In this document: in pieces, positions 1-48,445 of the stretch | Position numbering within the stretch: position 1 is the stretch's first letter | How the letters are laid out: each line of letters starts with the position of its first letter | Assembly (NCBI GenBank): GCA_016192455.1 | Contig: JACPUC010000026.1 | Span: 78,902-142,901 of the forward strand | Reading direction: 5' to 3' | DNA: 64,000 nt | From: Candidatus Tectimicrobiota bacterium | GTDB lineage: Bacteria > JACPUC01 | Made by a program: the position numbers and the translations under genes | The notes under the pieces: generated by a model | Seen by the model: the letters and a program-made list of their open reading frames with translations, nothing else | Told to the model about the DNA's origin: nothing | Database searches by the model: none

Positions 1-3000
1 CCCCGCCAGTGCTCGAGGACGTGATGCGCGAGCTGCCCCACCTCGCGGCCGGGAAGCTCAACCTCCTTGTCGAGATCAAAGGCCGCGCCCGGCTGCTGCT
101 TCCCCCATGCTTCCGGGGCTTCCTCCACGTAGCGGTAGAAGTAGCGTTTCGGGCATTGGCGGTAGGTGTGGAGCTGCGTCACGCTGAAGCAGGGCGCCGC
201 CCCAGCCGCTTCCACCGGCGCGACGCGGCTGCGCAGCTCCTCCGCCGGTAGGGGAGGAGCCGCAAGCGCGACCGCCTCGCGCAGCGGCAGCGCCGCCGCC
301 TCGGCGCTCCCGGCGCGCGCCGCGCGCACCACGTAGCTGGCTCTTCCCAGCGCGCGCACCTCTGCGGCGCCGGCAGCCGTGTCCGGCAGGTCGAGCAACG
401 CCGTCAGCCAGGACATCCAGCTTGCCGCGCCGCGTGCATTGCCGCCCGCGCCCTCGGCGGCCCCGACGAAGATCAGCCGGTCCCGCGCCCGCGTGCAGGC
501 AACGTAGAAGAGGCGGCGCCGCTCGGCCTCCTCCTTGCGCGCCTCGCGGGCTAGCGCCACCTGGTACGCCACCGGCTCCGCCTCGCTCTCGACCCCAGCG
601 CGCAGCCCCAGGCCGCAGCCGGCCCCCGTCCGCGGCTCGTAGTCAACGATGAGCCGCGACTTGCGGGCAGGCGGGCGGCGACTCAGATCGGGCAGGATGA
701 CGACGGGGAACTCCAGCCCTTTCGCGGCATGCACCGAGAGGAGCTGCACCCCGCCGCCCGCGCGGCTTGCCTCCGGCTCCGGGACCTCGATGCGGCTCTT
801 CTCGATATGCTCCAGGTAGAGCAGGAAGTCGCACAGGCTCCCCTGTTGGGAAGCCTCGAACGCTTCCGCCAGCTCCAGGACCTTGCGCACCACCACGACG
901 CGCTCCTCGCCTCCCGGCAGAGCGCCGAGCACCGCTTCGAGGCCCGAAGCCTCCAACGCCTCGGCCAGCAGCTCCGGCACCGTGGCGCGGTCGCGGCGGG
1001 CCCGCAGCCGCCGCAGCAGGTCGGCGGCAAAGTCGAGGGCGCGGCGATCGGGTGCGTCGATCTCCGCGATCCCCCCGGCCGCCGCCAGCCCCTCGTGCAG
1101 CGTGGCCCGCTGCGTCAGCCAGAAGAGGCCTTCGTCGGAAGCGGCCACCAGGGGCGAGCGCAGCAGCCCCGCCAGGGCGAGGTCATCCTCCTCGAAGGCG
1201 ACGCAGCGCAGCAGGCTGACGAGATCGAAGTACTCCTGCCGCTTGAAGAAGTCAGCCCGCACCAGCACCCGGTAGGGGATGCCTTGGCGTTGCAGCGCCT
1301 GCTCATAGATGGGAGCCGAGGTCATGGCCTGGAAGAGCAAGGCCACCTCGCGGTAGGCGACCCCCTCGTCCTCCACCAGGGCCTTGATGCGGCAGGCGAT
1401 CGAGTCGGCCTCCTCGACGCGGAGATCATCCAGAGAGCGCCTCCCCTCCGTCCCGGCGCGGTCCAGGAGGAGCACCTCCACGCAAGGTTCCGCGGAGATT
1501 CCCGGACGCTTCGGCAGCAGTTGCTCGTGGCCTACCTCGTAAGGCTTCAGGACGCCGACGGGCATGAGCCGCTCAAACAGCTCGTTCAGGAAGTCCAGCA
1601 GGCCGGGAAGGCTGCGGAAGTTCTCCTGCAGGCAATGGGCGGCCACGCCGGAGGCCGGCCCCTGGCGCTGCAAGGCATTGAAAATCTCCACCTCCGCCCG
1701 CCGGAAGCGATAGATCGACTGCTTCGCATCGCCGACGTAGAAGGTCGCGGCGCCGTCCGTGGGGCCAGCCTCTCCTGCAGCCGTCGGGGTCGGCGCCGCG
1801 GTGCCGGCAGGCATCGGGAAAGGATCAGTCGGCGCCGGCCCGCGCGACAGCAAGGAGAGCACCTCGTCCTGCACGTAATCGACATCCTGGAATTCATCCA
1901 CCAGGTAGTAGCGGAACCGGCGCTGCAGCGCTGCTCGAATCCCCTCGTGGCGGCGAAGCAGATCGCGGCTGCGATACAGGAGGTCGTCGAAGTCGAGCTC
2001 GCCGCGGTGTCCCTTCTCCACCGCATAGCGCCGCTGAAGCTGCCGAAACGCTTCCAGGAAGGCGCCGTAAAGCTCGGCCGCCTGCTCATCCACCTCCCCG
2101 AGGTGCAGATCGAGGCGGGCGGAGCTTCGCTTGGTCAACGGCTGCACCAGCTCGCGCAGGCTCACTGCGGCGGCGCGGAAGGCCTCCAGGTCGGCGTCGC
2201 GCCAGTGCTGGCCCTTACCGGAATTTATCCGAAACCCCCGGAACATCGTCATGAGGGCCGCCGCGCTCGCTTCGACATCTGCCGCGCGCTCCACCTCCTC
2301 GGCGCAATCCAGAATCTTGCGGCGGGCCAGTTCGGCCTTGTCGCCAGGAGCGCCGCCGACGCTCCGCAGCGTGGCAAGCGCGGCCCGCCAGCGCGGCTCT
2401 CGGACGACCTCCGCAAGGAGGCTCGCCTTGTACTCCCGGAGCTGCTCGGCCCAGCGAGCCAGGAGCGCCCCGGCGGGGACACGCGGCTCCTCTCCCAGGC
2501 GCTGCCCAAGCCAGGCCCCTAACCACTCCACCAGATGTCGCTGGTCGAGGCACTCGAGGAGCAACTCTTCGACGGCACGCAACCCCAGGCCCTCGACGAG
2601 CTGCCGGAAGGCGGCATCGTCTCGCCCGAGCAACCACGCCAAGGTCACCTCGCAAACCTCGGCGCGCCGGACCATCGCTTGCAGCTCATCCAGCTCCCGA
2701 AAGTGGGGGTCAACGCCCGCCTCGACGGCATAGTCATGCAGGATGGCGGCGAAGAAGCTGTGGATGGTGGAGATGTGGGCGCCTTCGAGGTCTTCCTCGT
2801 GGCTCCGCCAGAGCCGCCGCTGCGCCGGACGCGTCCGCTGCCGCTCCCGCACCGCCTCGCGGATGCGCTCCGTCATCTCGCTGGCGGCCTTGCGCGTGAA
2901 GGTGATGGCGACGATCTGCCTTACCCGCAGCCCGGCCTCCAGCGCCCACAGGTAGCGCGCGACGAGCACCGCCGTCTTCCCCGTGCCGGCGCCGGCGCTC

Positions 3001-3065
3001 ACCAGGATACGCGCCGACGACGATTCGATCGCGGCGCGCTGCTGCGACGTGGGAACGAAGTTCAC
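1..3065 (-). CDS. addA: AddA/RexA-like UvrD-family helicase-nuclease, partial (N-terminal ~1020 aa in window; C-terminus beyond left edge)
   Basis: Hand translation of the minus strand from GTG at 3065..3063 gives VNFVPTSQQRAAIESSSARILVSAGAGTGKTAVLVARYLWALEAG... (UvrD/Rep Walker A GAGTGKT) with no stop for >180 codons checked. Absent from the ORF track only because it runs off the window edge. GTG overlaps the addB TGA stop (GTGA). Confidence 0.8.
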   Translation of the reverse strand, partial: MNFVPTSQQRAAIESSSARILVSAGAGTGKTAVLVARYLWALEAGLRVRQIVAITFTRKAASEMTERIREAVRERQRTRPAQRRLWRSHEEDLEGAHISTIHSFFAAILHDYAVEAGVDPHFRELDELQAMVRRAEVCEVTLAWLLGRDDAAFRQLVEGLGLRAVEELLLECLDQRHLVEWLGAWLGQRLGEEPRVPAGALLARWAEQLREYKASLLAEVVREPRWRAALATLRSVGGAPGDKAELARRKILDCAEEVERAADVEASAAALMTMFRGFRINSGKGQHWRDADLEAFRAAAVSLRELVQPLTKRSSARLDLHLGEVDEQAAELYGAFLEAFRQLQRRYAVEKGHRGELDFDDLLYRSRDLLRRHEGIRAALQRRFRYYLVDEFQDVDYVQDEVLSLLSRGPAPTDPFPMPAGTAAPTPTAAGEAGPTDGAATFYVGDAKQSIYRFRRAEVEIFNALQRQGPASGVAAHCLQENFRSLPGLLDFLNELFERLMPVGVLKPYEVGHEQLLPKRPGISAEPCVEVLLLDRAGTEGRRSLDDLRVEEADSIACRIKALVEDEGVAYREVALLFQAMTSAPIYEQALQRQGIPYRVLVRADFFKRQEYFDLVSLLRCVAFEEDDLALAGLLRSPLVAASDEGLFWLTQRATLHEGLAAAGGIAEIDAPDRRALDFAADLLRRLRARRDRATVPELLAEALEASGLEAVLGALPGGEERVVVVRKVLELAEAFEASQQGSLCDFLLYLEHIEKSRIEVPEPEASRAGGGVQLLSVHAAKGLEFPVVILPDLSRRPPARKSRLIVDYEPRTGAGCGLGLRAGVESEAEPVAYQVALAREARKEEAERRRLFYVACTRARDRLIFVGAAEGAGGNARGAASWMSWLTALLDLPDTAAGAAEVRALGRASYVVRAARAGSAEAAALPLREAVALAAPPLPAEELRSRVAPVEAAGAAPCFSVTQLHTYRQCPKRYFYRYVEEAPEAWGKQQPGAAFDLDKEVELPGREVGQLAHHVLEHWR

Positions 3066-6000
3066 GGTGCTGCCTCGTCAGTCGTCGCCTCGTAGGCGCC
3101 CTCCCTCCCCTCCTCTTGCAGCTCGGTTTCGCTCCGCACCGAGTTGATCCGGCAGGCGGGGCGGAAGGGACAGCTCTCTTCGCAGTCTATCGGCGCCAAG
3201 CTGAAGTCGCCCTCGCGGAGCCGCGCCAGGAAGCGCGCGATATGCCTCCGCGTGCCCTCCTCGAGCTCCTCCCGCCATTGCTCCGACGCATCCCTGGGAG
3301 GCAGGACGTACTTCATGCGCTGCTTCTCATTCCTGAGATTCCTGAGCAGTACGTAGCCAGCCTGGAGAGGAGGCGCCTCCGGCAGCAGGCTGTGCACGGC
3401 CCAGACGTAGAGCGGCAACTGGAAGGTGATCCCCTGCTCAATGAAGTTTCCGCTGTCGCGAACCTGGCTGCGCTTGTAGTCGAGGACGATCGAGCCGCGC
3501 AGCTCGGGCGCACCCGCTGCATTTCGTTCGTAGACGTAGTCCACGCGGTCGATGACGCCGCGCAGGTGCACGGTCGTCGGCCCGCATGCGAAGCTCAGCG
3601 CTCCGCCCCGCCGTGGTGCGCCGGGGAGATGCAGGCCGGGGAGGGCCTCGGGACGACGAGAGGGATCCCCGGCATCATCCAGCGCCCCCCCCGCTCGCCC
3701 CGCCGCCACCCGGGCGGCAACGTGCCGCCCCGCCTCGCGGCGAGGGTCATGCCGCGGGGCTCGGCGCGGCGCGCCGAAGGGAAGCTCGAAGTAGGCCGGC
3801 AGGAGGAATCTCCCAGCCTTTTCAGCGCAGCGCGTCGCGTCGGCCTCCAGGAAGTCGGTGAGCACCTTCAGGAGCTCGCGCTGCTCGGCCTCCCAGCGAC
3901 CGGCATCGACGGGGAGCCACCCACGGGCAAAGCGCCGGAAGCTCTCCTCGGCGATCCGCCGCAATCGCGCGGCAGCGGCGGCGAGGTCCTCGGGGCGAAG
4001 CGGCAGGCGGCCCGCCGCGGCCTCCGCGGTGTAGAACTCCTCCAGGATGCCGTGCGCCAGGTTCCCCTCCTCGAGGGGTTGCAGAGGCCGCGCCCGGCTC
4101 TCGGCTGGCTTGAGGCGCAGGCGCTGGTTGGCGAAGTAGCGGAACGGGCACTTGCCATAGTCCGTCAGCGCCGTGGCGTTCAGGAAGCACTCGCCGTCCA
4201 GCTCCGCCGCCAGGGTGTCGCGCACCGCCGCGGCGCCGAGTCGTCCCGACCAGCGGCTGTGCTCATCGGCGCGCAGGCGCCGCTGCTCGACGCGCAGCGC
4301 CGCGAGGAGGCGCAGCAGCGTGGCATCCTCGGCGCTCTCCAGGAGGGGGAACGGCAGGGAGCGCGCTGTGCCGGGAGCGCTGACCGTCTTCGGCAGCAGC
4401 TCACGGAGCCGCCTCAGCCCCGGCGCCTCGCCCAGCTCCTCGGCGCGCGCGGCAGCGAGGCGCGCGAAGGCGGCGAGGCGCAGGTCGCCGAAGCGCCAGA
4501 CCTGCCGCGCCGGGAGCAGGACGCTTGCCGCGGCGCGGTGCTCGCGCGCCGGGGGGCTTACCTCGACGAGGCGCTCCACCTCGGCGAGGAAGGGTGAACG
4601 ACCGCTCTGGGGATCGGCCTCGTCCTCGCACGTATAGCCGAGGAGGAGCCGGCGGCTCGGGCGCGTGGCGCAGAGGTAGAAGAGGAGGCGCTCCTCTTGC
4701 TGGCGCGTCGTGCTGAGCTCGAGCCGATCATCGCGCAGGGGTGTTCCCGGAAGCGGGGCGAGGCGGCGGTTGAGCCGCGCCCGCGCCGCATCGTTCAGGA
4801 GCGGCGACTGGCGGGGCCGCGGCGGGAACGCACCCGACTCCACGTCGCCCAGGAGCAGCACGTCGAACTGACGCTGGCGCGCCGTGTTCGCATCGCAGAG
4901 CAGGATCGCCCGCTCCGCCGACTGCTGGCGCTTCTGCCACGGGAAGCGGCTCTCCTCCAGGCGTTCCTCGAGGTACGCGGCGAACGCCGCAAGTTCAATC
5001 GTGGCGCTGCCGCCCAGGCCGCCGAAGGCGGCCGCCGCGGCGCGCACTTCCTGGCGCCAGCGATGCAGCGCGCGCGCGTCGCGAGCGCGCAGGTCCTCCT
5101 GCTCCGAGGCGGCGATCGCCTCCTCAACACCCAGGCCGTCGAGAAAGGCCACGAGCTTCTCCGCCACGTCGCCGGCCTCGCTCCGCCGGGGAACCGCCTC
5201 GCCACGGGCGAAGAGCGCCTCGAAGCGGGAGATCGCCTCCTGGTGCCGCTGGAGCTGTGCCGCCGGCCCTTCGGCTGCGGCACGCGCCTCGTACGCTCCC
5301 TCCTCAGCGAGGTCGTCCTCCCGCGCCGCCACCTCCCCCCGGCAGCATCCTTCGAGGTAGGCGCGGCGCGCCGACAGCCGCTGGCGCCAGGAGGCCAACC
5401 CGCCGGTGACGCCGCAGGCGACCACGGCGGCGCGCAGCTCCACAAACGCCGCGCCAGACCGCCGCGGGGGGGGCGGTGCGTCAGGGGTGCCCGCGGCGGA
5501 GCCGCCAGGCCGCGGCTCGGGCACCGCCTCGTCCAGACCATAGTACGGACTGGTCATCAGATCGAGCACCGAGGGAGCCGGCCAGTCCTCGACGAGCAGC
5601 TTCAGGGCGCGCTGGCAGAAGCGCACCACCGGCTGGGCGGCGAGCGGCTCGGGGTCGGAGCAGGTGAACGGCAGGCCATGCGCCTCGAGGGCGCGCATGA
5701 GGCCGCGGCGGTGCCGATCGAGCTGGCGGGCCACCAGGCCGATTCCGCCCGGTTCGCAGACACCCTGCCGAATGAGGCGCTTGCAGGCAGCCGCCAGAAC
5801 CGCGTGCGCGGCGGCCTCGTTGCCGCCGCTCAGCACCTCGAGGCCGCCGGCGGCGGCGACCTTCGTCTCCTCGGCGCCGTCCTGCGCCGGTCGGAAGAGA
5901 TCGTGCTGCAAGACGCGCAGCGCCCCGGGAAGGTCCGTCGTCTCCGCCGCCCGCAGCTCGACGACCTCGTCGGCCAGCCCGCGCAGGCGCCGAGCCAGCG

Positions 6001-9610: not shown

Positions 9611-10363
9611 ATGAGTCTGCAGGGTAAGGTTGCAATCGTCACCGGGGCAGCGGGGGGAATTGGTCAGGCCTATGCCAAGGCGCTCGCGGCCGCAGGGGCG
9701 AGCGTGGTGGTCGCGGACATCAAGGACGGCGGCGCCACGGTGGCCGCCATTACGGCCGCGGGCGGGCTCGCCCTGGCGCTTGCCTGCGACGTGAGCGATG
9801 AGACCAGCAGCCAGGCGATGGTCCGCCAGGCGGTGGATCACTTCGGCGGCGTCGACGTGCTCGTCAACAACGCCGCCATGTTCGCCGGCGTGGCGGTGAA
9901 GCCCTTCGACCTGATCAGCGTCGAGGAGTGGGACCACATGATGGCGGTGAACGTGCGCGGCACCTTCCTCTGCTGCCGCGCCGTCGTCCCCGCCATGCGC
10001 GAGCGCGGCAAGGGGAAGATCATCAACGTCTCCTCGTCGACGATCCTCTACGGCACGCCGCTGCTCCTGCACTACGTCACCTCGAAGGGAGCCGTCATGG
10101 CCCTCACCCGGGCCCTCGCCCGCGAGGTGGGGCGCTGGAACATCTGCGTCAACAGCATCGCCCCGGGCATCACCCTGAGCGACGCCGTCAAGGAACACCC
10201 GCGCATGGCGAAGTGGGACGCCGCGGTTGTCCAGTCCCGCTGCATCCGGCGCAGCGAGTTCCCCGAGGACCTCACCGGCACCATCCTCTACCTGGCCTCC
10301 GACGCCAGCGACTTCGTCACCGGCCAGTTCATCACCGTGGACGGCGGCACGTCGATGCATTGA
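9611..10363 (+). CDS. SDR family oxidoreductase (FabG-like)
   Basis: TGAAGGIGQAY Rossmann motif, NNAA, catalytic YxxxK (HYVTSKGAV), PG motif. Confidence 0.85.
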   Translation: MSLQGKVAIVTGAAGGIGQAYAKALAAAGASVVVADIKDGGATVAAITAAGGLALALACDVSDETSSQAMVRQAVDHFGGVDVLVNNAAMFAGVAVKPFDLISVEEWDHMMAVNVRGTFLCCRAVVPAMRERGKGKIINVSSSTILYGTPLLLHYVTSKGAVMALTRALAREVGRWNICVNSIAPGITLSDAVKEHPRMAKWDAAVVQSRCIRRSEFPEDLTGTILYLASDASDFVTGQFITVDGGTSMH

Positions 10364-12404: not shown

Positions 12405-13129
12405 TGGCAAGCCGCGCGGCACGCCCCCTTGCGACTCGCTGGGAGCGGAGGCTGCGAAGCGTCTCGACCTGGATTGCCCTGCTGCTGGCGCTTGGGGTGG
12501 GACAGAGCGCCGCCCTGGCGCTGCTCCTGGAGCGCGCGCCCGGCGGCGGCGGGGACTGGCGCCAGGTGGGGAACGCCTCGGAAGGCGTGGGCCCGCTGGG
12601 GGCAACGCCATCGCTCGCGCAGCAGCGGCAGCGGCCCTTCCCCGATGTCTACTACCACGCCGACAAGGTCATCCGCTTCAGGCTTGGCGCGGGTTCGCTG
12701 GCGCTCTTCAATGAGAAGGGGGAGCCCACCCGCGTCCACAATGATCCGCAGCAGGCGCTCGGGCCGCCTGATCACGGCCTGCAAGGCTGGCCGTACACCG
12801 GCGCGGTGTCGCTGGGAAACGGCGGCGAGATCATCCTCGGTTTCCCCACCTGCATCGAGGATGGCGAGGGAGACGATTTCATCGTGCACGAGATCGTCAC
12901 GCCGGAGCGCGCCGAGGTCTTCGGCAGCCTGACGCCGGAGCCGCGGGACTTCCGCCTCCTAGGCACCGCCAGCGGCACGACGCGCTTCGATCTTGCCGCC
13001 GCCGGCGTGCAGCGGGTCTACCTCATCAGGATCGTGGACCAGAACGACGTCCGCACCCCTTCGCCCTTTGCCGGCTTCGATGTGGACGCGGTGGAGGTGA
13101 TCCACCCGTGCCAGCCGTTCACGAGCTGA
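12404..13129 (+). CDS. hypothetical exported/membrane-anchored protein
   Basis: ATG overlaps the PRTase stop (TGATG) with a GGAGGA RBS. N-terminal TM/signal STWIALLLALGVGQSAALALLL. No family recognised. Confidence 0.5.
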   Translation: MASRAARPLATRWERRLRSVSTWIALLLALGVGQSAALALLLERAPGGGGDWRQVGNASEGVGPLGATPSLAQQRQRPFPDVYYHADKVIRFRLGAGSLALFNEKGEPTRVHNDPQQALGPPDHGLQGWPYTGAVSLGNGGEIILGFPTCIEDGEGDDFIVHEIVTPERAEVFGSLTPEPRDFRLLGTASGTTRFDLAAAGVQRVYLIRIVDQNDVRTPSPFAGFDVDAVEVIHPCQPFTS

Positions 13130-13210
13130 GCGCGGGCGCCGCAGGAGCCCATCGGCCAGCCGCCACCGCCGGCCTGGATGACTCATCACCCGTGCAGGGA
13201 GGAGCAGCGC

Positions 13211-13966
13211 ATGCGCCTGAAGGATCGCGTCGTCATCATCACCGGCAGCGCCCAGGGCATCGGCAAGGTGTACGCCCAACGCTGCGCCCGCGAAGGAGCC
13301 AGGGTGGTCCTCACGGACATCCTCGACACCCAGCCGGCGGCGGAGGAGCTGCGCAAGAGCGGGGCCGAGGTGCTCGCCCTGCGGACCGATGTCGCCAAGG
13401 AGCAGAACACCAACGCCATGGCCGCGCAGACGATCGCACGCTTCGGGCGCATCGACGTGCTGGTGAACAACGCGGCCATCTTCGCCACCCTGCCGCTGCA
13501 GGATTTCTGGAACATCCCGGTGACGGAGTGGGACCGCGTCATGGAAGTCAACGTGAAGGGGAACTTCCTCTGCGTCAAGGCGGTGCTGCCGCAGATGCGC
13601 AAGCAAGGGGGCGGCAAGATCATCAACATCGCCTCGGGGGTGGCCTTCAAGGGGGTGCCGTACATGCTCCACTACGTCAGCTCGAAGGGCGCCGTCGTCT
13701 CCCTGACGCGGGCCATGGCGCGCGAGCTGGGACCCTTCAACATCGCGGTGAACGCCATCGCGCCCGGTTACACGATGAGCGAAGGCGTCCTGGCGCGCCC
13801 CGAGCAGGTGAATCAAATGCGCCGCCCCATCGTCGAGAGCCGCTGCTTCAAACGCGACGAGGTGCCCGAGGACCTCACCGGCACCCTCGTCTACCTCGCC
13901 AGCGCCGACAGCGACTTCGTTACCGGACAGATTCTCGCCGTGGACGGCGGCTCCGTCATGCACTGA
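13211..13966 (+). CDS. SDR family oxidoreductase (paralog 1 of tandem pair)
   Basis: MRLKDRVVIITGSAQGIGKVYAQR...NNAA...YVSSKGAV. RBS GGGAGGAG upstream of the internal Met. Confidence 0.85.
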   Translation: MRLKDRVVIITGSAQGIGKVYAQRCAREGARVVLTDILDTQPAAEELRKSGAEVLALRTDVAKEQNTNAMAAQTIARFGRIDVLVNNAAIFATLPLQDFWNIPVTEWDRVMEVNVKGNFLCVKAVLPQMRKQGGGKIINIASGVAFKGVPYMLHYVSSKGAVVSLTRAMARELGPFNIAVNAIAPGYTMSEGVLARPEQVNQMRRPIVESRCFKRDEVPEDLTGTLVYLASADSDFVTGQILAVDGGSVMH

Positions 13967-14068: not shown

Positions 14069-14824
14069 ATGCGGTTGAAAGATCAGGTCGTTATCATCAC
14101 GGGAGGCGCCCAGGGGATTGGCAAGGTGTATGGGCAACGCTGCGCGGCCGAGGGCGCCAAGGTCGTGCTAGCGGACATCCGTGACGCCGAACCGGTGGCG
14201 GCGGAGCTGCGCCAGGGCGGCGCCGAGGCGCTGGCGCTGCACACCGACGTGGCCGACGAGACGAGCACGGCAGAGATGGCCCGCCGGACCGTGGAGCGCT
14301 TCGGGCGCATCGACGTGCTGGTGAACAACGCGGCGGTCTTCGCCATCACCAATCCGAGAGATTTCTGGGAGATTCCAACCTCGGATTGGGACCTGGCAAT
14401 GGCGGTGAACGTGAAGGGACCGTTCCTTTGCACCAAGGCGGTGCTGCCGCGGATGCGCGCGCAGGGGAAGGGGAAGATCATCAACATCGCCTCGGGGACG
14501 GCTTTCAAAGGGACCGTCGGGGTCCTCCACTACGTGAGCTCCAAGGGAGCGGTCATCTCCCTCACCCGCACCATGGCGCGCGAGCTGGGCCCCTTCAACA
14601 TCGCCGTGAACGCCATCGCACCGGGATTCGTCTTGCATGAGGGGATGCGCGCCAGCACGGCGCAGGTCGCGTCGATGAGCGAGCCGGTGAAGAAGAGCCG
14701 CTGCTTCCAGCGCGATCAGACGCCCGAGGACCTCACCGGCACTCTCGTCTACTTGGCGAGCGCGGACAGCGACTTCGTCACCGGGCAGGTCATCGCCGTG
14801 GACGGCGGCTCCGTGATGCACTAG
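14069..14824 (+). CDS. SDR family oxidoreductase (paralog 2 of tandem pair)
   Basis: MRLKDQVVIITGGAQGIGKVYGQR... Collinear with 13211..13966 and highly similar to it; the TAG stop abuts the repeat structure. Confidence 0.85.
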   Translation: MRLKDQVVIITGGAQGIGKVYGQRCAAEGAKVVLADIRDAEPVAAELRQGGAEALALHTDVADETSTAEMARRTVERFGRIDVLVNNAAVFAITNPRDFWEIPTSDWDLAMAVNVKGPFLCTKAVLPRMRAQGKGKIINIASGTAFKGTVGVLHYVSSKGAVISLTRTMARELGPFNIAVNAIAPGFVLHEGMRASTAQVASMSEPVKKSRCFQRDQTPEDLTGTLVYLASADSDFVTGQVIAVDGGSVMH

Positions 14825-14921
14825 GGTCACGTCGTACACCCGCGCGGAAAAATGCACATGTTCCACGTGGAACATCGACCAAGTCCAGCGGGTCACGTCG
14901 TACACCCGCGCGGAAAAATGC
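14824..14921. repeat. two 32-bp direct repeats (GGGTCACGTCGTACACCCGCGCGGAAAAATGC at 14824..14855 and 14890..14921) flanking an 18-bp perfect palindrome ATGTTCCACGTGGAACAT (14858..14875)
   Basis: Read directly from the sequence. Repeat period 66 bp, 34-bp unique spacer containing the palindrome. Confidence 0.7.
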
Positions 14922-15236
14922 GCCCCCTCAGCGGTAGAATTGGCGCAAAGATTCTTGCTGGAGGGATGCTTGATCCCTCGCTCGCCCGAGCCCCTTGGCT
15001 GCCGAGAGCAGGCGTTCCCGCGCTCGATGGGAGGGCACCCCTCCCCCCCGCCGGCAGCGCTTCGGATCAGCGGCATCTCTCCCCTTGCTCCTAAAGGGAA
15101 GAGCACGTATCCTTAGCAGATGGGAGAGGAGACAACGCCGGCGGCCGGGGGGAGGCGCCGTTCGCCGTGGCCCAGCGGGGCCGGCCGCCGTGATCCGGGA
15201 AGGTAGGGTCGGCGGCCGCAGCGAAGGAGGACCATC

Positions 15237-15830
15237 ATGGAGCGACAGGCTGGCGCCGCGATGGTTGCAAGTCCTCCGCAGCACTTCAGCAACGAGCAGC
15301 TTGGCCTCATTGCCAGCCTCACGGATGTGGCGGAAGAGGCAATCGCCGGCCACTACAAGATCGGCATGAAGGAGTGGCGGCACTGCAGGTACGACATCCG
15401 CACGCAGCGCGACGAGGCCCAGCCGCCGCAAGCCACGGAGGCTTTCGCGGAGGTCAGCAGGTACGAGTGCGTGGCCCTGCCCGACTCGCGGCAGGCGCGG
15501 CGCTTCGATCTCTACCGCATCCGCATCTACGATGCAGCGATCCTTCATGCTCTCCACAACCGTCAGGCGCTGCACGAGTTCGAGCCTCTCCTGCTCTACA
15601 TCCTCACCCATGAGCTGGTGCATGTGGTGCGGTTCGGCAGAATGAATCAGGCCTTCTGGGTGAGCCCGAAGGAGCGGCAGGCAGAGGAGGCGCGGGTACA
15701 CAAGGTCACGCACGACATCCTGCGGGCCCTTGCGTTCCAGCGCTTGCCGTCGATTCTCAATCACTACGCCGGATTCTGCGCTCTCCCCGCCCTCCCCGCC
15801 AGGAAAGGCCTCGGTAAGGCCGGCCCGTGA
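15237..15830 (+). CDS. hypothetical protein with HExxH-like motif (LTHELVHVVRFG)
   Basis: Strong RBS GAAGGAGGA before the ATG. Protein-like composition. No family recognised. Confidence 0.5.
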   Translation: MERQAGAAMVASPPQHFSNEQLGLIASLTDVAEEAIAGHYKIGMKEWRHCRYDIRTQRDEAQPPQATEAFAEVSRYECVALPDSRQARRFDLYRIRIYDAAILHALHNRQALHEFEPLLLYILTHELVHVVRFGRMNQAFWVSPKERQAEEARVHKVTHDILRALAFQRLPSILNHYAGFCALPALPARKGLGKAGP

Positions 15831-16380: not shown

Positions 16381-16480
16381 CAGGAGGGGAAACCTCTTCT
16401 CTCCCCCGGAACCATGGCGTCTCGACCTGCTGAGGGTTGCGCCGGGAAGGTAACCGGCAAGACCACGACTGTCGTTCCAT

Positions 16481-16520
16481 CTCCGGAGCCTTCCCCCGTG
16501 AAGCTCCGGAGTTTTGTTTC
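16481..16520 (+). terminator. rho-independent terminator (9-bp stem CTCCGGAGC/GCTCCGGAG, 13-nt loop, TTTTGTTTC tail)
   Basis: Seen directly downstream of the FmdB gene. Confidence 0.6.
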
Positions 16521-16590
16521 CGGCTCCCCTCGGCTGCCTGACGCTGAGCCGCCGTGCTAGAGACCTTCCACCAAGAGCGTGGGACGCGCG

Positions 16591-16809
16591 ATGCCGTTGG
16601 GAACCATCCGAGAAGCAGACTTCAGGAACGGACGCGGCGCCATCGAGTTCGAGGGGCGGCTCATCCCGTTTTCCTGGAAGGATGTTGCGAACCGGTCGAT
16701 GAAAGGGCTGGAGCCGGGGGTGCGGGTTCTCTTCACGCTTCTGGAGCGCGGGGATGCGAGCCGCGCCGTGGCGGTGCGACGCTTTCCCTCTGCGGGTGCG
16801 GCGAGCTGA
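16591..16809 (+). CDS. small cold-shock-domain-like (OB-fold) hypothetical protein
   Basis: MPLGTIREADFRNGRGAIEFEGRLIPFSWKDV...LEPGVRVLFTL echoes the Csp pattern (GTVKWFN..KGFGFI...DVFVHFS...L.EGQRVEF). Weak RBS; start uncertain (track ORF begins 16579). Confidence 0.35.
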   Translation: MPLGTIREADFRNGRGAIEFEGRLIPFSWKDVANRSMKGLEPGVRVLFTLLERGDASRAVAVRRFPSAGAAS

Positions 16810-16890
16810 GCCGTCGCATCGCGGGGGGACGCCCGGCGCAGCGTCATGGCCGAGGCCGGCGAGCGGCGCCGACGGCGTTCTCGATCGGAT

Positions 16891-22169: not shown

Positions 22170-22278
22170 TGAAGTGTTTCACGAGTTCGCCAGGAAAATC
22201 GACCTAGCGCACGCAGCATTGAAATGGGGATTTCTTGTGGCGGATGTCTGCTCCCCCACACCCCCTATCCCAGCGAGC

Positions 22279-22308
22279 CGTAAGGGCGGTTCACGAACCG
22301 CCCCTACG
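22279..22308. repeat. REP-like palindromic element copy 1 (CGTAAGGGCGGTTCACGAACCGCCCCTACG, slightly degenerate)
   Basis: Inverted repeat GGGCGGTTC/GAACCGCCC. Same element at 38818..38845 and 48322..48349. Confidence 0.7.
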
Positions 22309-22420
22309 ATTAGGGGAGGCGCGAGGAGGGGCGGCTTCATCGCAGGGAAACTGCTTTAGATTGGAAACGATGTCGCATTGGAGTCAACGAACGTAGACGA
22401 GACGAAGCGAGGATGGTGCA

Positions 22421-27284: not shown

Positions 27285-28343
27285 TCAACCCTTCGGCCGC
27301 TTCCAGACGCCCCGCTCCTGCAGCCGGCGGGTGCTCTGGCGGTGAATCTCCTGGCGACCGGCGCGGCGCGGCGGGGGCTCGTGCAAAAAGAGGTTCTTGG
27401 GGAAGATCGGCTGCTCGTAGATGACCTTGTACTGTTCGGTGCGCAGGTCCTTCAGCCAATTGCCGAAAAGCGACTTGTCGCGGAAATCGCGCAGCGCCTC
27501 GATATCGACCATGGCGCTGCAGAAGGAGTCCGTCCCCGCGATGTGATGGGAGATCACTTCCCCCTTGTAGTCGCACATGATGGTGTTGCCGCCGGTGATG
27601 TCCCAGCCGTGCGGCGAGTCGGCGGTGATCATGCCGAGGGCCGGGTTGGGAGCGATGACGTAGCAGGTGTTGTCGAGGGCCCGCGTGCGCGCCCGCAGCT
27701 CGGACCAGCCGCGCCCCGCCCATGGCTCCACGTAGGTCGGCATGTAGATCACCTCGGCGCCGTTCATGGCCAGGCCGCGCGCCGTCTCCGGGAAGCTCTG
27801 ATCCATGCAGATGATGGTGCCGATGCGGCCGATCTCCGTGTCGCAGACGGGGTAGAAGGAGTCGAGGGAGTAGCCGAACTTCTCGATCCAGAGGTCCCAC
27901 ACGTCGTGGGGCACGGTGCTCGGCTCGTTCGGGTAGACCTGCAGCTTGTGGTACTTGTGGACGATCTTGCCCTTCGGGTCGATGACGAAGGCGAGGTTGA
28001 AGTAGCGATCCTCGATGATCTCCGCCTCGACGGCGCGAATCTGCCCGGCGATGAAGACGTTCAGCTCGCGGGCGATGTCGGCCAGGTAGTCCGTCTCGGG
28101 TCCGGGCACGGTGGTCATCAGCTCCTTGCAGGCGCGCACGTGGTCCCAGTCAAACATCGAGTCCGGGAACCCCTGGATGGCGCCCTCGGCGAAGCAGATG
28201 AGCTTCACGGGGTACTCGAGGCTGGCCAGCCAGTAACTGGCGCGGATGCCCTGGGCCAGGTGATCGAGGTTGCGCTTCATGTCGTCCCGACACTGGATGT
28301 TGAGGAACGTGCTCTGCACGGCAACAGCAGCGTAGCGGTCCAT
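27285..28343 (-). CDS. aliphatic amidase/formamidase (nitrilase superfamily, Cys in IICMDQSFPE)
   Basis: Similarity in pattern to AmiE (KIVHKYHKLQVYPNEP vs VQKYRKIIPW; IICMDQSFPE vs LIICDDGNYPE). Confidence 0.75.
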   Translation of the reverse strand: MDRYAAVAVQSTFLNIQCRDDMKRNLDHLAQGIRASYWLASLEYPVKLICFAEGAIQGFPDSMFDWDHVRACKELMTTVPGPETDYLADIARELNVFIAGQIRAVEAEIIEDRYFNLAFVIDPKGKIVHKYHKLQVYPNEPSTVPHDVWDLWIEKFGYSLDSFYPVCDTEIGRIGTIICMDQSFPETARGLAMNGAEVIYMPTYVEPWAGRGWSELRARTRALDNTCYVIAPNPALGMITADSPHGWDITGGNTIMCDYKGEVISHHIAGTDSFCSAMVDIEALRDFRDKSLFGNWLKDLRTEQYKVIYEQPIFPKNLFLHEPPPRRAGRQEIHRQSTRRLQERGVWKRPKG

Positions 28344-28569
28344 AGTGCTTCCCCCATCGAGCCAAGGTGGAAAACTCAGGCGCCCGGCGGCGCCGCGTTG
28401 AGGTTCACCTCAACGAAGCCGGTACTTGCGGCAGGCTCGAGCGCTCGCAAGGGGCCCGCGCGCCGCGGCGGCACTGAGCCGGCACTGGCTCACCCAGCGC
28501 CTCCCCCTGGAGGTCAGCCTCCCCGTGTAGTTGGAGATCACCGTACTGGCAGCGGGGTTCTAAAAAGGA

Positions 28570-30927
28570 TCAACCTTTTCCGTATCGCCATTGTATTTCA
28601 CCGCACTGACATTGCACCCACTCCGCGCTCTCAGCGTCGGCCAACCAAACTCCCCTGCGGCACGACGAACATATGAACGACTCAAGGGCTTTTTCACAGG
28701 CGTCAATCACCTTAACCGCTTCCTGGCGAACTAAATCGAGTGTGTGAGTTCCACGGTTGGCCCAGGACACAAGCAGCCTATCCGCTTTGTCAAGCGCGCC
28801 CGTCGCATCCGAATGGGCTACGTACTCCTGTCCCACCTTTTTCCGGAAGCACTTCTTCCCGTCCGCCACGAAGCGATCGAGAAAGTCGTGCGCTATACGT
28901 TTGTCATTCTTTTCGGCGCGAAGGTAAGGCAATCTGATTCGAAGGCGCTCAGCGATCAGTGCGAGCTCGACGTCCATGATTTTCCTGGCATCAGTTCCCG
29001 CCGAGTCAGGACGATCATTGAGCTGGGCACGAGCGTCGTCGAAGGTCGTCGTTTTGTGCGACCATCGAATACCAACCGTCGGCGTCTCATAGGGCAACAG
29101 GGTCTTAAAGGTCCAACTGTTGCCGTGAAGCTGCTGCCTAAGCTCTGTGTACCACTCACGATCATGTGTCAAGATCACCACCTGCCGCTTGGCGAACTCC
29201 TTCTCCAGCAGCTCTCTAATCATGCCTCTGTGATTCCGATCGAGACTAATAACCACATCATCGAGGAAAAGGGGTCTATCCATCTTGGCTTCGCGCTTAG
29301 CCATCGCTAAGAAGATACAGAGACCGAGGCTGTTTCTATAGCCCTCCGATAAGGTAAGCCTTGGCGATTCCTGTTCATGGCCGTGGAAGTTCAAGCCAAT
29401 ATCGATGGCTTTATCCACATCATTCGGAAAGTACAGGCGCACATTTTCGATTGGTTCTCCAGGGTGCAGGATAGACCACATTGATTGGATATCTACAGAG
29501 ATATCCTCAATCACCTTTTGTGACCGAAGTCTGATCTCCTCACGGACACCCTTTTCAAGCGAACTAACAAAATCTCTCAGAGCTTCAGCACGAGCCACTG
29601 CTGCCGCTTGCCCCTTACCCTCGATCACAGCTTTGCCCACCTCGACGGTCTGCCGGTCGGTCGAGAGCTGGCGGACATCGGGAGGCGCGTCCTCCCACGC
29701 CTTCCTTGCTAAATTGATCACCGGAAGCAGATTGGCCTCAAGTGTCTTGAGGTCTGCATCGTTGCAAGAGGTTCGAAGCACGTCCACGTTGAAGCTGTCC
29801 AAAAACGCAATCCGGTCAGCGAGCGGACCCTTGGTAATTTCGTCGCGCCAGGCCTTGATCGCGGGCTTTGAAAGGTTGGACTGGAGCGATTTACAGGTGT
29901 CACAGAGAGTCCCAACTTCTGCTTTGCGGGTATTGTAAACGTTGATGATTTTATGAAGCCGCTCGCGCTCCGACTTCAAGTGTGCCTGAAGGTTCTCCAA
30001 CGGAATGGCCCGTCCGCAGGCGGGACAATTGACTTCTTTTGCTTCTCCCAATTTGTCGAGGAACGTGACGGTCGTCTGCAACACCTCCAATTTCTCAGCG
30101 ATCAGAGGATCAACAGAGTCAGCAAACTTCATGCTAACCGAGCGCACGGCATCAATGCAATGCTTAAGGTTAATTTCGGCTACATCTTGGAGTGCGAAGT
30201 TCCTTCTCTGGTCGGCCAAGGAGCGGTCGATCCGCGTCTCCAGCTCCGCCTCCAACTCTTTGCAGCGAGATAGAGGGTCCTTCGTGGTGGCCTCGTTAGC
30301 GCAATACCTCGCGTGGAGTGTCGCTATCTTGCTGGCGATCTGGTCATCGTTGTCCGCACCAAATGTCGCCGCACGACTGTTCTTTATCCTCCCAAGCGCA
30401 ACCTTAGTGTCCTCAAACTTCGACTGTTGCGCTATCATCTTTGAGAGCTGCCGGAGGTTCTCGGCAGCAACCTCCATTTGGTGAAGTCCGAGGAGCGGAA
30501 GGAGGGTGGAGTACTTGTCTCCCTTAGTGTCGTGAATGAAGGCCGCAACCTCGTCCTGCCTCAGTACCGTGCGGTGGTATTCCCAAGTGGGCATCGCGAC
30601 GACCTCCGCACCGGAGCTTTTCGGAGAGCCGTCCGGCTTTATCTGGACCGTGAGCTCCGCGTCGTTTGTGAATGTGATCCTTAGTTCTGTCTTCCGGTCC
30701 CTCGGCTTATGTGTATTAGGTATGGCCTTCTCCTGGTGTTTCCCGCTGTACTCGTGTGAGAGATGACCAATCCTGCCATTGTGAAGAACGTACTCAACAG
30801 CATCGACGAAAGACGATTTTCCCGCTCCATTGTTTCCGTACACGACCATTGACTTGCTGTCGGGATCCAACGCCACTGGGTCGGCGGCACCCCGGAACCA
30901 CGACAGTTGGATGGACTTGATTCTCAC
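28570..30927 (-). CDS. Rad50/SbcC/RecF-like SMC-type ABC ATPase with coiled-coil zinc hook and novel C-terminal Zn-ribbon domain
   Basis: GTG start. N-lobe MRIKSIQLSWFRGA...VVYGNNGAGKSSFVDAVEYVL (Walker A). Hook-like CPACGRAIPLE...LCDTC in mid coiled coil. C-lobe LSEGYRNSLGL (signature), RPLFLDDVVISLD (Walker B/D-loop), VVILTHD (H-loop). Then ~190 aa unrecognised ending CSSCRRGVW...WVQCQCGEIQW. Confidence 0.8.
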   Translation of the reverse strand: MRIKSIQLSWFRGAADPVALDPDSKSMVVYGNNGAGKSSFVDAVEYVLHNGRIGHLSHEYSGKHQEKAIPNTHKPRDRKTELRITFTNDAELTVQIKPDGSPKSSGAEVVAMPTWEYHRTVLRQDEVAAFIHDTKGDKYSTLLPLLGLHQMEVAAENLRQLSKMIAQQSKFEDTKVALGRIKNSRAATFGADNDDQIASKIATLHARYCANEATTKDPLSRCKELEAELETRIDRSLADQRRNFALQDVAEINLKHCIDAVRSVSMKFADSVDPLIAEKLEVLQTTVTFLDKLGEAKEVNCPACGRAIPLENLQAHLKSERERLHKIINVYNTRKAEVGTLCDTCKSLQSNLSKPAIKAWRDEITKGPLADRIAFLDSFNVDVLRTSCNDADLKTLEANLLPVINLARKAWEDAPPDVRQLSTDRQTVEVGKAVIEGKGQAAAVARAEALRDFVSSLEKGVREEIRLRSQKVIEDISVDIQSMWSILHPGEPIENVRLYFPNDVDKAIDIGLNFHGHEQESPRLTLSEGYRNSLGLCIFLAMAKREAKMDRPLFLDDVVISLDRNHRGMIRELLEKEFAKRQVVILTHDREWYTELRQQLHGNSWTFKTLLPYETPTVGIRWSHKTTTFDDARAQLNDRPDSAGTDARKIMDVELALIAERLRIRLPYLRAEKNDKRIAHDFLDRFVADGKKCFRKKVGQEYVAHSDATGALDKADRLLVSWANRGTHTLDLVRQEAVKVIDACEKALESFICSSCRRGVWLADAESAEWVQCQCGEIQWRYGKG

Positions 30928-31178
30928 TCGTCCGCCTCCACCTTTGGCGGGACAGGCGCCATATCTTTGAGGAGTAAGTTGGCTAATTCAGTCAAATCAG
31001 TGGGACGAAGCTGACGCTTTCCGAGTTCATCTCTGATAAGCTCCCTCATCCGAATAGCAACGGCATCTGTCACGGTTGGATAGGCTTTCTGCGCATCGCC
31101 AACGCGCTTGGATATCCAGTTTTCCTCTCCTTCCACTGCCGTCGCCTCCCTGTTAGTCAAGCTGCCAGGAAAAGCCAC
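30924..31178 (-). CDS. small hypothetical protein (84 aa) translationally coupled to the ATPase (GTGA overlap)
   Basis: Its stop TGA (30926..30924) overlaps the GTG start (30927..30925) of the ATPase. Lies in the same low-GC island. Start uncertain (GTG, or internal Met MRELIRDELG). Confidence 0.4.
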   Translation of the reverse strand: MAFPGSLTNREATAVEGEENWISKRVGDAQKAYPTVTDAVAIRMRELIRDELGKRQLRPTDLTELANLLLKDMAPVPPKVEADE

Positions 31179-31234
31179 ATAGCATTCTCTAGCTTCTTGC
31201 TAAACACGGTCCTCACTGCGCAGCGCCAGCGTCA

Positions 31235-38493: not shown

Positions 38494-38663
38494 GGTTCTC
38501 ACTCCGCGGCGGTTCCCGCCGCCGCATTGTTCCACCGATACGGAAGATCGGCATCTCGGTGCGGCCCCGGATTCGCTTCCTGCCTGCCTCGAAAGTAGGC
38601 GCGGACTTGGTCGATTTCACGTGATGATCAAGATGAAGGTCATGCGGCCAAGTGTCCTTCAGC

Positions 38664-38996
38664 TCTGCGCTCTCTGTGCCTCCGCGGTTCAATGGAGTGC
38701 GCCGCAGAGACATAGAGGACGCGGAGAAGGGAGGGGAAGGCGCCACCGACGCAGCGGGGATGCACAGCGATTTCCGCCTGCCTCGGCGTTCAGCCGTGGC
38801 CCCTCGCATCCCCATGGTAGGGGCGGTTCGCGAACCGCCCCTACGGTCGCTGGGATGAAAGCCTGCCGCGAACATAGGTACCTACGTGGTCTATCGCACG
38901 CGATGCTGAGGCTCCCTGGCACGTCCTACACTCTCTGCGATCTCTGCGCCGCTGCGGTTCAATGGAGTGCACCGCAGAGACGCAGAGGACGCGGAG
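38664..38996. repeat. pair of ~63-bp direct repeats (38664..38726 and 38933..38996, about 90% identical) flanking a REP-like palindrome (38818..38845) inside a 600-bp intergenic spacer
   Basis: Read directly: CTCTGCG(C/A)TCTCTG(T/C)GCC(T/G)C(C/T)GCGGTTCAATGGAGTGC(G/A)CCGCAGAGAC(A/G)(T/C)AGAGGACGCGGAG. Confidence 0.65.
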
Positions 38997-41038: not shown

Positions 41039-41126
41039 GAGCGCAGTCCTTCTCAACACGGCGAGCGCCATGCTATTCCCGCACCACCGCGCCGCCGCTC
41101 GGGGTCATGCTTCGCCGCAAAATAGG

Positions 41127-48243: not shown

Positions 48244-48321
48244 TGCCGCCGAAGCTCGTTAACTAAATTGTGCGAGGGAGCGGTGCCCCTTCGCCTGCCT
48301 GCCGGCAGGCGCATCCCGCCT

Positions 48322-48349
48322 TGTAGGGGCGGTTCGCGAACCGCCCCTA
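48322..48349. repeat. REP-like palindromic element copy 3 (GTAGGGGCGGTTCGCGAACCGCCCCTAC) with outer CATCCC...GGGATG arms
   Basis: Perfect 28-bp palindrome, identical core to 38818..38845. Confidence 0.75.
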
Positions 48350-48445
48350 CGGGATGGGAGTGCGGGGGAAGAAGGGTCCGCCACAACAAATGGACCCCGC
48401 GGCGCAGCAACCTCGTCAGCGAATTTCCGCGGCGCATCTCACCCG

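Follow-up and report, generated by a model that had tools for sequence, protein, structure and literature searches.

Results and Discussion

Architecture of the locus

Between an SDR gene and a gene for a hypothetical protein, two exact 32-bp direct repeats bracket a 34-bp insert, as found by reading the sequence and with a repeat finder. The structure measures 98 bp as a whole and lies in a window of 64 kb (the entire stretch of DNA that was analysed), where it is accompanied by the following features:

14069–14824, plus strand: SDR (FabG-like) gene, upstream (adh_short_C2, E 8e-58)
14824–14855, plus strand: direct repeat copy 1, 32 bp, local intergenic sequence that begins with the final G of the SDR TAG stop
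14856–14889, plus strand: 34-bp insert ACATGTTCCACGTGGAACATCGACCAAGTCCAGC, missing in the sister strain L126
14859–14874, no strand assigned: parS, 16-bp perfect palindrome TGTTCCACGTGGAACA, predicted ParB binding/loading site, inside an 18-bp palindrome (14858–14875)
14890–14921, plus strand: direct repeat copy 2, 32 bp, without a difference from copy 1; the two together make up a target-site duplication
14922–15236, plus strand: conserved intergenic sequence that follows the insertion and serves as colinear anchor when the empty site of L126 is compared
15237–15830, plus strand: hypothetical gene, 197 aa, HELVH motif, the synteny anchor for the sister-strain comparison, whose protein led to both the host MAG and the sister strain

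Both copies of the repeat read GGGTCACGTCGTACACCCGCGCGGAAAAATGC and are 100% identical at a period of 66 bp, and as the bases flanking the two copies differ on both sides, the repeat is exactly 32 bp long. The 18-bp perfect palindrome of the insert (ATGTTCCACGTGGAACAT) is hairpin-forming and sits off-centre, with 2 nt to its left and 14 nt to its right; no hairpin was found in the 32-bp repeat. A first-pass annotation, made from the letters alone, had already described two identical 32-bp repeats around a 34-bp spacer with an 18-bp palindrome, placed the first of them immediately on the TAG of the SDR gene and put the structure about 300 bp upstream of an HExxH gene. Our analysis agrees on each of these points, as the TAG and repeat copy 1 share one base and 315 bp separate copy 2 from the start of the HExxH gene at 15237. 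The 312-aa antisense ORF that had been mentioned along with them is also present (14168–15106). The insertion, directly 3' of the stop codon, does not interrupt the SDR coding sequence. In NCBI the SDR protein has a 100% match in a MAG of Candidatus Tectomicrobia, the host.

Allowing up to three mismatches, the 32-mer occurs in the 64 kb only in these two copies, with 0 expected from 100 shuffles, and the palindrome is likewise unique in the window at this tolerance, again with 0 expected. The pair is the sole exact direct repeat of at least 16 nt with a period of 30–150 bp in the whole window.

In five independent Logan assemblies (SRR12113390, SRR12113418, SRR12113422, SRR12113426 and SRR12113428) the contigs break at window position 14892, 2 nt into repeat copy 2. 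At k=31 a break is expected there if the 31-mer ending in ...AAAAATGC has two successors, an A leading into the insert and a G leading on to the flank; the contigs would also break at this base if 14922 were polymorphic for G and A. Complete read-through comes from the MAG contig only, and the copy number of 1.5 for the 66-bp unit is that of this one assembly. An exact-protein look-up of the SDR, its paralogue and an intergenic 80-aa ORF in the Logan assemblies found none of the three on record.

The palindrome has the sequence of a canonical parS site

The 16-bp palindrome fits the pattern of chromosomal parS sites (TGTTNCACGTGAAACA or TGTTCCACGTGGAACA), shows 0 mismatches to TGTTNCACGTGNAACA and is the sole parS-like site in the 64-kb window. 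From Pseudomonas aeruginosa the sites parS2 and parS3 have been described, both identical to TGTTCCACGTGGAACA (PMC4368675), and a table of parS consensus sequences from many phyla lists TGTTCCACGTGGAACA for P. putida and TGTTCCACGTGGAACG for M. xanthus (PMC7022226). At least 120 viral contigs of IMG/VR contain the 18-mer; their GC content ranges from 26 to 71%, their flanks are unrelated and TGTTTCACGTGAAACA variants often lie beside it, while a control palindrome with the same half-site composition gave 0 matches in the viral contigs; the motif is thus kept across unrelated taxa far above chance. Judged by its sequence, the palindrome is an exact canonical chromosomal parS site, and by analogy with such sites we infer that its present role is that of a predicted ParB loading site. 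A dimer of ParB reads the 16-bp parS palindrome via its helix-turn-helix domains, binds CTP, closes as a clamp and slides onto the flanking DNA. At the candidate parS described here, such a clamp would nucleate a partition complex, on which ParA and SMC would then act.

With chromosomal parS sites and their ParB (Spo0J) in ParABS systems the locus shares the exact 16-bp palindrome, which here is intergenic and surrounded by housekeeping and metabolic genes, as on a chromosome. It differs from them in that the site is carried on a 34-bp insertion inside a perfect 32-bp duplication and is missing in the sister strain. Chromosomal parS sites usually cluster in the origin-proximal domain; this one is solitary in 64 kb, and Pfam scans of the approximately 55 ORFs of the window revealed neither parA, parB, dnaA nor any other origin-proximal marker; the GC-skew profile of the window shows no clear switch. 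The plasmid centromeres that are built from tandem units (F sopC, P1 parS, R1 parC) resemble the locus in having a repeated unit with an inverted-repeat protein-binding site, but here only 1.5 units are present, the parS is of the chromosomal type rather than specific to a plasmid, and the protein binds outside the part that is repeated. Flanking repeats are not a general property of parS either, as the longest direct repeat around 135 parS instances in viral contigs was 16 nt, and a literature search for parS together with target-site duplication found nothing relevant.

The site is empty in a sister strain

In order to take a closer look at the history of the structure we compared it with the contig L126 from a sister strain, whose neighbouring protein is 92% identical. 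After the SDR stop this contig (sample SRR22387965) has one diverged 32-mer and then directly the conserved flank, with no insert. When 66 bp are removed from the window, the two sequences align without gaps across the site, with 86% identity over 402 columns, and the repeat matches its single orthologue in L126 at 22 of 32 positions in the same register (p ~7e-6 for chance). As established by this alignment, the ancestral state consisted of the SDR stop, one copy of the 32-mer and the downstream flank, and the host lineage gained exactly 66 bp, that is, the insert and the second copy.

The two copies differ at 0 positions, and about 10 differences would be expected for a duplication as old as the split of the strains; the chance of finding none is 0.69^32 (~7e-6), or 0.86^32 (~0.008) if the divergence of the flank is used instead. 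The lack of any difference between the copies, set against 10 of 32 positions changed in the orthologue, makes the insertion event much younger than the strain split. Taken together, the single diverged copy in L126, the missing insert and the gap-free alignment after removal of 66 bp identify the repeats as a young target-site duplication of ordinary local sequence. They are best explained as the scar of the insertion, with no role of their own.

These results also bear on the two readings that the first-pass annotation had offered. Its preferred one, a duplicated operator or attenuator for a dimeric regulator, is borne out insofar as the palindrome is the site of a dimeric DNA-binding protein; as this site is an exact canonical parS it is not an anonymous operator, and what is duplicated around it is ordinary local intergenic sequence and not an operator. 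The second reading, two half-sites of site-specific recombination or an insertion scar, survives in its latter part, as seen from L126 with its one diverged copy and no insert, but not as functional half-sites. On balance we consider it probable that the locus holds a genuine parS in a recent insertion with target duplication.

Origin of the insertion

Several known classes of elements were compared with the structure. Insertion sequences and MITEs likewise show an insert between two direct copies of its target and an empty site in a relative, but a duplication of 32 bp is far above their usual 2–14 bp, terminal inverted repeats are lacking, and the only inverted repeat of the insert is the internal, offset parS palindrome. 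The element is also single-copy in the window and the viral collection. The first-pass annotation had named many further copies of the 32-mer as a reason to reclassify the structure as a REP or MITE element, and no such copy was found in the window or the viral collection, where the 25-nt core of the repeat gave 0 matches in viral contigs. A REP or BIME element, which would be dispersed in many copies, was rejected as well, since the 64 kb hold the insert once and the repeat twice, at neighbouring positions. Unequal recombination among the three SDR paralogues does not account for the repeat, because the sequence after the other two stop codons is unrelated to it.

Among the known ways of making such a structure we tentatively name the host Cas1-Cas2 integrase, acting at a non-CRISPR site, as the single most likely enzyme, an attribution that is possible rather than probable. 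It is proposed because the 32-bp repeat and the 34-bp spacer have the size of a type I-C-like array unit. In Bacillus halodurans the type I-C repeat is 32 bp long (PMC6519985), and in Xanthomonas a type I-C repeat of 31 bp occurs with spacers listed at approximately 32–36 nt. This likeness in size is to type I-C systems of other organisms, whose repeat length may not be that of the host. A comparison of the repeat with that of Xanthomonas gave a score of 16 versus 12.2 for shuffled sequences (p 0.02), which is one comparison with an unrelated organism. Off-target integration by Cas1-Cas2 that spawns new repeat-spacer-repeat units ('neo-CRISPR') has been documented in papers that cite Nivala, Shipman & Church (2018), and the known cases are E. 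coli over-expressing Cas1-Cas2 and circumstantial natural ones. The locus resembles them in the repeat-length duplication of a non-CRISPR host sequence around a spacer-length insert, and together with the empty site in a relative these are among the features by which a neo-CRISPR unit is recognised. In addition, the duplicated segment begins with G on both strands. Such a G at both strand starts of the target fits the preference of Cas1.

In such an event a parS-bearing prespacer, which could come from the own chromosome, a plasmid or a phage, would be captured; the target would be cut with a stagger of 32 bp, the 34-bp DNA inserted and the gaps filled, which would produce the duplication. Integration just after the gene would leave a new ParB loading site there. 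The locus differs from the documented neo-CRISPR units in that its 'spacer' is a functional motif of host type that is not recognisably foreign, and in that one unit only is present. As a random spacer would rarely hold a complete parS, either selection or a mechanistic bias must be invoked. The Pfam scans of the approximately 55 ORFs found no cas gene in the 64-kb window.

A donor of the insert was searched for in several collections. A 20-mer from the non-parS part gave 0 matches in viral contigs and 0 in the GTDB representative genomes, a collection that does not contain the host and its relatives, as the conserved downstream 25-mer also has 0 matches there. In JGI metagenomes the same 20-mer matched once, in a nitrile-hydratase-like ORF with no parS, which is at chance level. 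No second copy of a 17-mer of the insert was found in the window, and in a BLASTN search of the 34-mer against plasmids and phages the matches were limited to the parS part.

The same predicted functional parS could have been made with no CRISPR enzyme at all, by template switching during replication (FoSTeS/MMBIR-like) or by break repair with filler DNA, and we regard this route as unlikely. The nascent strand would copy the 32-mer, continue with 34 nt at another parS locus, return to a point 32 nt upstream and copy the 32-mer again, and the trigger may have been the palindrome, or ParB bound to it, stalling the fork at the donor parS. The product predicted in this way matches the structure seen, the hairpin-forming palindrome and the lack of cas genes in the 64 kb suit it, and short strings are shared at the junctions (ATG at ...AAATGC/ACATG... 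and GTC at ...AGTCCAGC/GGGTCAC..., the slash marking the junction). However, these microhomologies of 3 nt are at chance level, the donor was not found in the window, and the route makes no prediction that duplication and insert should both match canonical CRISPR unit sizes. The remnant of an integrated mobile element, a reading already raised in the first-pass annotation, is improbable. A plasmid or prophage with a parS would have integrated at the 3' end of the SDR gene between 32-bp attL and attR cores, and a later deletion would have left 34 bp. Attachment cores are direct repeats of some tens of bp that are typically found at the 3' end of genes, which the repeats resemble, and parS is frequent on phage and plasmid contigs; but this reading needs two events, with deletion endpoints that must fall 2 and 14 bp from the cores. 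The repeat overlaps the gene by 1 nt only, no integrase or other trace of an element lies nearby, and the single copy of the sister strain is ordinary, diverged intergenic sequence.

The remaining explanations concern the reading of the structure itself. Plasmid centromeres made from tandem units with internal palindromes exist; sopC of the F plasmid is mentioned in PMC3597684. Several 66-bp parS units in a longer array of sopC or plasmid-iteron type might have been collapsed to 1.5 by short-read assembly, as a k=31 graph cannot count how often a loop is traversed and every Logan contig breaks at the repeat. We consider this quite improbable, because the MAG contig crosses the structure with no more than a single insert, an initial insertion would have been needed in any case and the sister strain has no unit at all. 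That the loop is a chimeric path in the MAG assembly, or a binning artefact, would fit with the read-through in one assembly and with the SDR protein not being on record in the Logan assemblies, but the breaks of five independent sample assemblies coincide to the base with the one that the repeat predicts, the structure of 98 bp is shorter than a typical read and the insert is a biologically meaningful perfect parS, so that an artefact is very unlikely. The same low probability applies to an operator, attenuator or terminator with duplicated half-sites. It would explain a perfect palindrome between two same-strand genes, and the hairpin followed by T5 resembles a terminator on the minus strand; an intrinsic terminator of the SDR gene was rejected, as neither a terminator nor a promoter match exists on the plus strand and only the minus-strand look-alike remains. 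Fold z-scores of the region are only -1.87 and -1.24, and an Rfam search for a structured RNA or riboswitch in the region gave nothing beyond a 13.9-bit ilvH look-alike. Furthermore, the sequence agrees in every base with a motif that is universally conserved and independent of taxon, as a local operator would not, and the same gene pair occurs in the sister strain without it. Finally, a functional mini-array, or a CRISPR-derived regulatory RNA (CreA-like), whose spacer matches parS by chance is extremely unlikely. Period and part sizes (32/34/32) are indeed those of CRISPR arrays, but two repeats with one spacer, where three or more repeats with different spacers are typical, and no cas genes in 64 kb led us to reject an array, in agreement with the first-pass annotation, and Rfam returned no CRISPR-DR or other RNA family for the repeat at E up to 10. 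Unlike the repeats of CRISPR arrays, this one is unstructured and occurs at this locus alone, and its homologue in the relative is intergenic DNA present once; a crRNA against parS would hit the host's own centromeres.

Implications and surroundings

parS sites are commonly viewed as old, conserved landmarks of the region around the replication origin, and how new ones come about can rarely be observed. What we see here resembles a centromere site that has arisen recently, and as the occupied and the empty state are both preserved, the 34-bp insertion that brought in a perfect parS is open to dating and dissection. If Cas1-Cas2 made the 32-bp duplication, spacer integration off target would have a natural example in this locus, among the few natural records of it with the empty site kept in a sister strain. 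The CRISPR adaptation machinery would then supply new functional cis-elements, in this case a centromere. Such integration is known chiefly from over-expression in E. coli, and new CRISPR arrays have been proposed to start from it. For genome scans it follows that a repeat-spacer-repeat unit without cas genes nearby is not necessarily a degenerate CRISPR, and that its 'spacer' should be checked for known protein-binding motifs.

With regard to the surroundings, the 197-aa protein encoded downstream remained without a Pfam or NCBIfam match when E values up to 5 were allowed, and one of its distant homologues carries the NCBI label 'nucleoid-associated protein', which is a label alone. A different REP-like element is also present in the window, in three copies.

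Structure of the locus and its assembly

The structure lies directly behind an SDR/FabG-like gene and reads TAG|GGTCACGTCGTACACCCGCGCGGAAAAATGC-ACATGTTCCACGTGGAACATCGACCAAGTCCAGC-GGGTCACGTCGTACACCCGCGCGGAAAAATGC-GCCCCC, with the first G of repeat 1 completing the TAG stop codon of this gene. The features concerned are:

14069–14824, SDR/FabG-like gene, stop abutting repeat 1
14824–14855, 32-bp direct repeat 1
14856–14889, 34-bp insert
14858–14875, 18-bp palindrome within the insert
14890–14921, 32-bp direct repeat 2
15237, start of the next gene, a 197-aa hypothetical protein with an HELVH motif

A repeat finder returned the two 32-mers as identical, with a mismatch at either side of each, and together with the palindrome this bears out the repeat-spacer-palindrome arrangement described in the first-pass annotation. 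No other copy of the 32-mer exists in the 64 kb with up to 3 mismatches allowed (shuffles expect 0), the palindrome occurs once in the window and is not expected by chance, and further exact direct repeats of at least 16 nt with a 30–150 bp period were not found elsewhere in the window.

Five Logan assemblies with an identical downstream gene (SRR12113390, SRR12113418, SRR12113422, SRR12113426 and SRR12113428) all start at window position 14892. At k=31, two successors to the 31-mer just before it, which lies in the repeat, would make the k-mer starting here the first that belongs to the downstream flank alone, and the break is thus exactly the one that a repeat-insert-repeat structure predicts; it is supportive but not conclusive, as a G/A polymorphism at 14922 would give an equal break. 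The assembly of a sister strain (L126, see below) passes its single 32-mer unbroken, and the metagenome-assembled (MAG) contig is the sole assembly reading through the structure, which we consider very unlikely to be an artefact. Because a k=31 graph cannot count loop traversals, a longer tandem array is a minor possibility, and its collapse in the contig is an improbable explanation.

The insert carries a parS motif

The DNA motif places the palindrome in the parS family. The core is found verbatim in parS2 and parS3 of P. aeruginosa (TGTTCCACGTGGAACA, PMC4368675), the consensus of P. putida is also TGTTCCACGTGGAACA and conforms to TGTTNCACGTGAAACA, the general consensus of chromosomal parS sites, and the parS of M. 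xanthus is TGTTCCACGTGGAACG (PMC7022226). An exact-match scan found the 18-mer in at least 120 IMG/VR contigs, whereas a control palindrome of equal half-site composition had 0 matches in IMG/VR. The 135 instances among the matches listed stand in contigs of 26–71% GC with unrelated flanks, are often intergenic and often adjoin TGTTTCACGTGAAACA-type variants. Such indifference to taxon and context marks a universal protein-binding site and, since the core equals published parS sites, the ‘spacer’ appears to contain a perfect ParB-binding centromere site; even with 3 mismatches allowed, the window has no other parS-like site. The palindrome was also matched in phi29-family phages by plasmid/phage blastn, which fits the host-type parS known on some phages. 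By analogy with ParABS systems the site may work like a parS: ParB dimers would bind to the palindrome and load there as CTP-dependent clamps, from where they spread (PMC7022226), with the 32-bp repeats being passive.

Some viral contigs (L035, L105, L054, L106, L026) carry three to five exact parS 18-mers 1–2 kb apart. In L035 and L105 a conserved gctacg...acaggacaacaa motif comes after every copy, directly upstream of a ribosome-binding site, an arrangement like that of a phage regulatory cassette with parS at its centre. Flanking repeats as a general parS trait were ruled out, the longest among the 135 viral instances listed being 16 nt.

An empty site in a sister strain

One close relative is represented by the Logan contig L126 (SRR22387965), which encodes an orthologue of the 197-aa protein at 92% identity. 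Its sequence at the site, ...GTCATGCACTAG-GGTCGGGTCGCAGACCTGGGGAGAAGAATCC-CCGCCCTCAGCAG..., shows the SDR stop, one 32-mer and the conserved downstream flank in this order, and no parS-like site was found in its 6.9 kb. The single 32-mer is identical to the window repeat at 22 of 32 positions in unchanged register (chance p ~7e-6), and the window minus 66 bp (insert plus one repeat) is colinear with L126, gap-free across the site and 86% identical over 402 columns. As L126 has one orthologous 32-mer and no insert, the 32-mer is ordinary local intergenic DNA and the window lineage gained the 34-bp insert and a second copy. These comparisons support the first-pass suggestions of an insertion scar and of a site for a dimeric protein, the former through the empty site and the latter through the parS match, while the operator proposed there now seems improbable.

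The two copies show 0 differences as against 10 differing positions in the L126 orthologue. Had the duplication been as old as the split, such identity would be expected at 0.69^32 ~7e-6, or 0.86^32 ~0.008 using the flank divergence, and the event is therefore probably recent, or the copies were homogenised, which is less parsimonious.

The 315 bp upstream of the 197-aa gene (14922–15236) are highly conserved against L126 (86%, the 402-column alignment including this region) and contain a long-range 20-nt inverted repeat (15040–15059/15136–15155); the fold z-score is only −1.24 with one compensatory pair in two sequences compared, and the region may be a structured leader. Between its Zn-ribbon gene and cheZ, L126 also holds a 1237-aa DUF87/HerA plus Mrr_cat (NA-iREase1) gene and a 103-aa ORF (1767–5480), which are absent from the window (~16400–16890) and from a further contig, L001; this stretch is a variable, defence-like insertion adjoining the locus.

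Origin of the insert

A long exact target duplication flanks the insert, which would thus have been joined to cuts staggered by 32 bp, with the gaps then filled in. To our knowledge, the Cas1–Cas2 integrase is the one well-characterised bacterial machine doing so at this scale; its action copies one repeat length and brings in one spacer, and type I-C spacers are typically 33–36 bp. Off-target integration reportedly created new repeat-spacer-repeat units at non-CRISPR sites in E. coli, and there are circumstantial natural cases (Nivala et al. 2018, as cited in other papers). The duplicated segment has G first on both strands, a weak lead that fits the Cas1 preference. Cas1–Cas2 of P. furiosus integrates off-target at repeat-like sites, and the type I-C repeat is 32 bp long (PMC6519985). 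Another weak lead is a likeness to a Xanthomonas I-C repeat slightly above shuffles (p 0.02), in one comparison with a sequence from an unrelated organism. Against this origin, no cas genes lie within the 64-kb window, and a complete parS would be rare in a random spacer, for which reason selection or bias must be assumed. No donor sequence was found in the window, viral contigs, GTDB representative genomes, plasmids or phages. Off-target integration by a host Cas1–Cas2, if the host encodes one, is therefore a possible but doubtful source of insert and duplication, and the likeliest of those considered. Template switching or filler repair is a rather unlikely one, and an eroded integrated element is hardly to be expected.

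The structure looks like a single product of CRISPR adaptation but lacks the hallmarks of a CRISPR array. With two repeats and no cas genes in 64 kb, the first-pass annotation was right not to call one, and a true mini-CRISPR is highly improbable. The 32-mer was ruled out as a CRISPR repeat family on these grounds and by the lack of a hairpin on either strand and the single-copy orthologue in the relative; Rfam CRISPR-DR gave no match at E up to 10, and the 32-mer core had 0 matches in viral contigs. REP or MITE copies were likewise rejected (a single element without terminal inverted repeats, and a 32-bp duplication far exceeding transposase footprints), as were unequal exchange among the SDR paralogues as repeat source, the DNA behind the other two stop codons bearing no relation to the repeat, and a plus-strand terminator or promoter, for which there was no match. 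Nothing stands out in the local RNA fold. A terminator-like match on the minus strand (14855–14875) consists of the parS hairpin followed by TTTTT of repeat 1, with no minus-strand gene converging on it.

Our literature search found no precedent for this architecture, in which a parS lies on an insert of spacer size, the target is duplicated over a repeat length and the empty site is preserved. The motif at the centre is a known one and hence less of a surprise; the way in which it was acquired is unusual. A 21-nt part of the insert (CGTGGAACATCGACCAAGTCC) matches a soil metagenome contig (L127, JGI Ga0126311_10409789, 896–916) in a nitrile-hydratase-like ORF (…GSWNIDQVRF…) without parS; the match count is at chance expectation for a 20-mer.

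Host and gene neighbourhood

Both the 197-aa protein and the SDR have 100% identical counterparts in an NCBI MAG named Candidatus Tectomicrobia bacterium (locus tag HYY96_15075, contig of 277,354 bp). The window (GC ~68%) encodes metabolic and housekeeping functions, namely three SDRs, methyltransferases, an AddB-like nuclease, CheZ, an M24 peptidase, GGT, hydantoinases, UbiD and a DEAD/MrfA helicase; neither parA/parB nor dnaA was found within its 64 kb, and an Rfam scan gave no family at gathering score. The 197-aa protein (15237–15830) matches no Pfam or NCBIfam family and has 48 homologues, mostly of 35–43% identity from Deltaproteobacteria/Myxococcota-type MAGs, one being named ‘nucleoid-associated protein’ by NCBI. 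An FmdB-type zinc-ribbon gene follows it in all loci seen.

Two of the three SDR/FabG-like paralogues (9611–10363, 13178–13966, 14069–14824), the latter two, stand in tandem with blocks of 77–87% nucleotide identity and one 25-nt identical stretch, which suggests a recent duplication or gene conversion; this paralogy is a probable cause of breaks here in k=31 assemblies. Three long ARAGORN ‘tRNA’ calls (86–98 nt; 13081–13166, 44197–44290, 46738–46835) are probably false positives, since two fall within well-supported coding genes and no tRNA in the window reaches the Rfam gathering score. GC dips to 57–60% against ~68% at 28000–32000, where a 785-aa SMC_N/AAA_13/AAA_15 ATPase is encoded (28570–30927, minus strand), and this stretch may be a defence-like island gained by horizontal transfer. 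A REP-like palindromic element (GTAGGGGCGGTTCGCGAACCGCCCCTAC), unrelated to the 32-bp repeat, occurs three times (22273–22309, 38810–38846, 48316–48352; 76–100% identity). Its copy at 38810 is flanked by a 64-nt direct repeat (38663–38726/38933–38996; 89% identity at a distance of 270 bp). This repeat lies between the genes of two Hydantoinase_B paralogues (36580–38535 and 39137–41071), which have blocks of 75–79% nucleotide identity in common.
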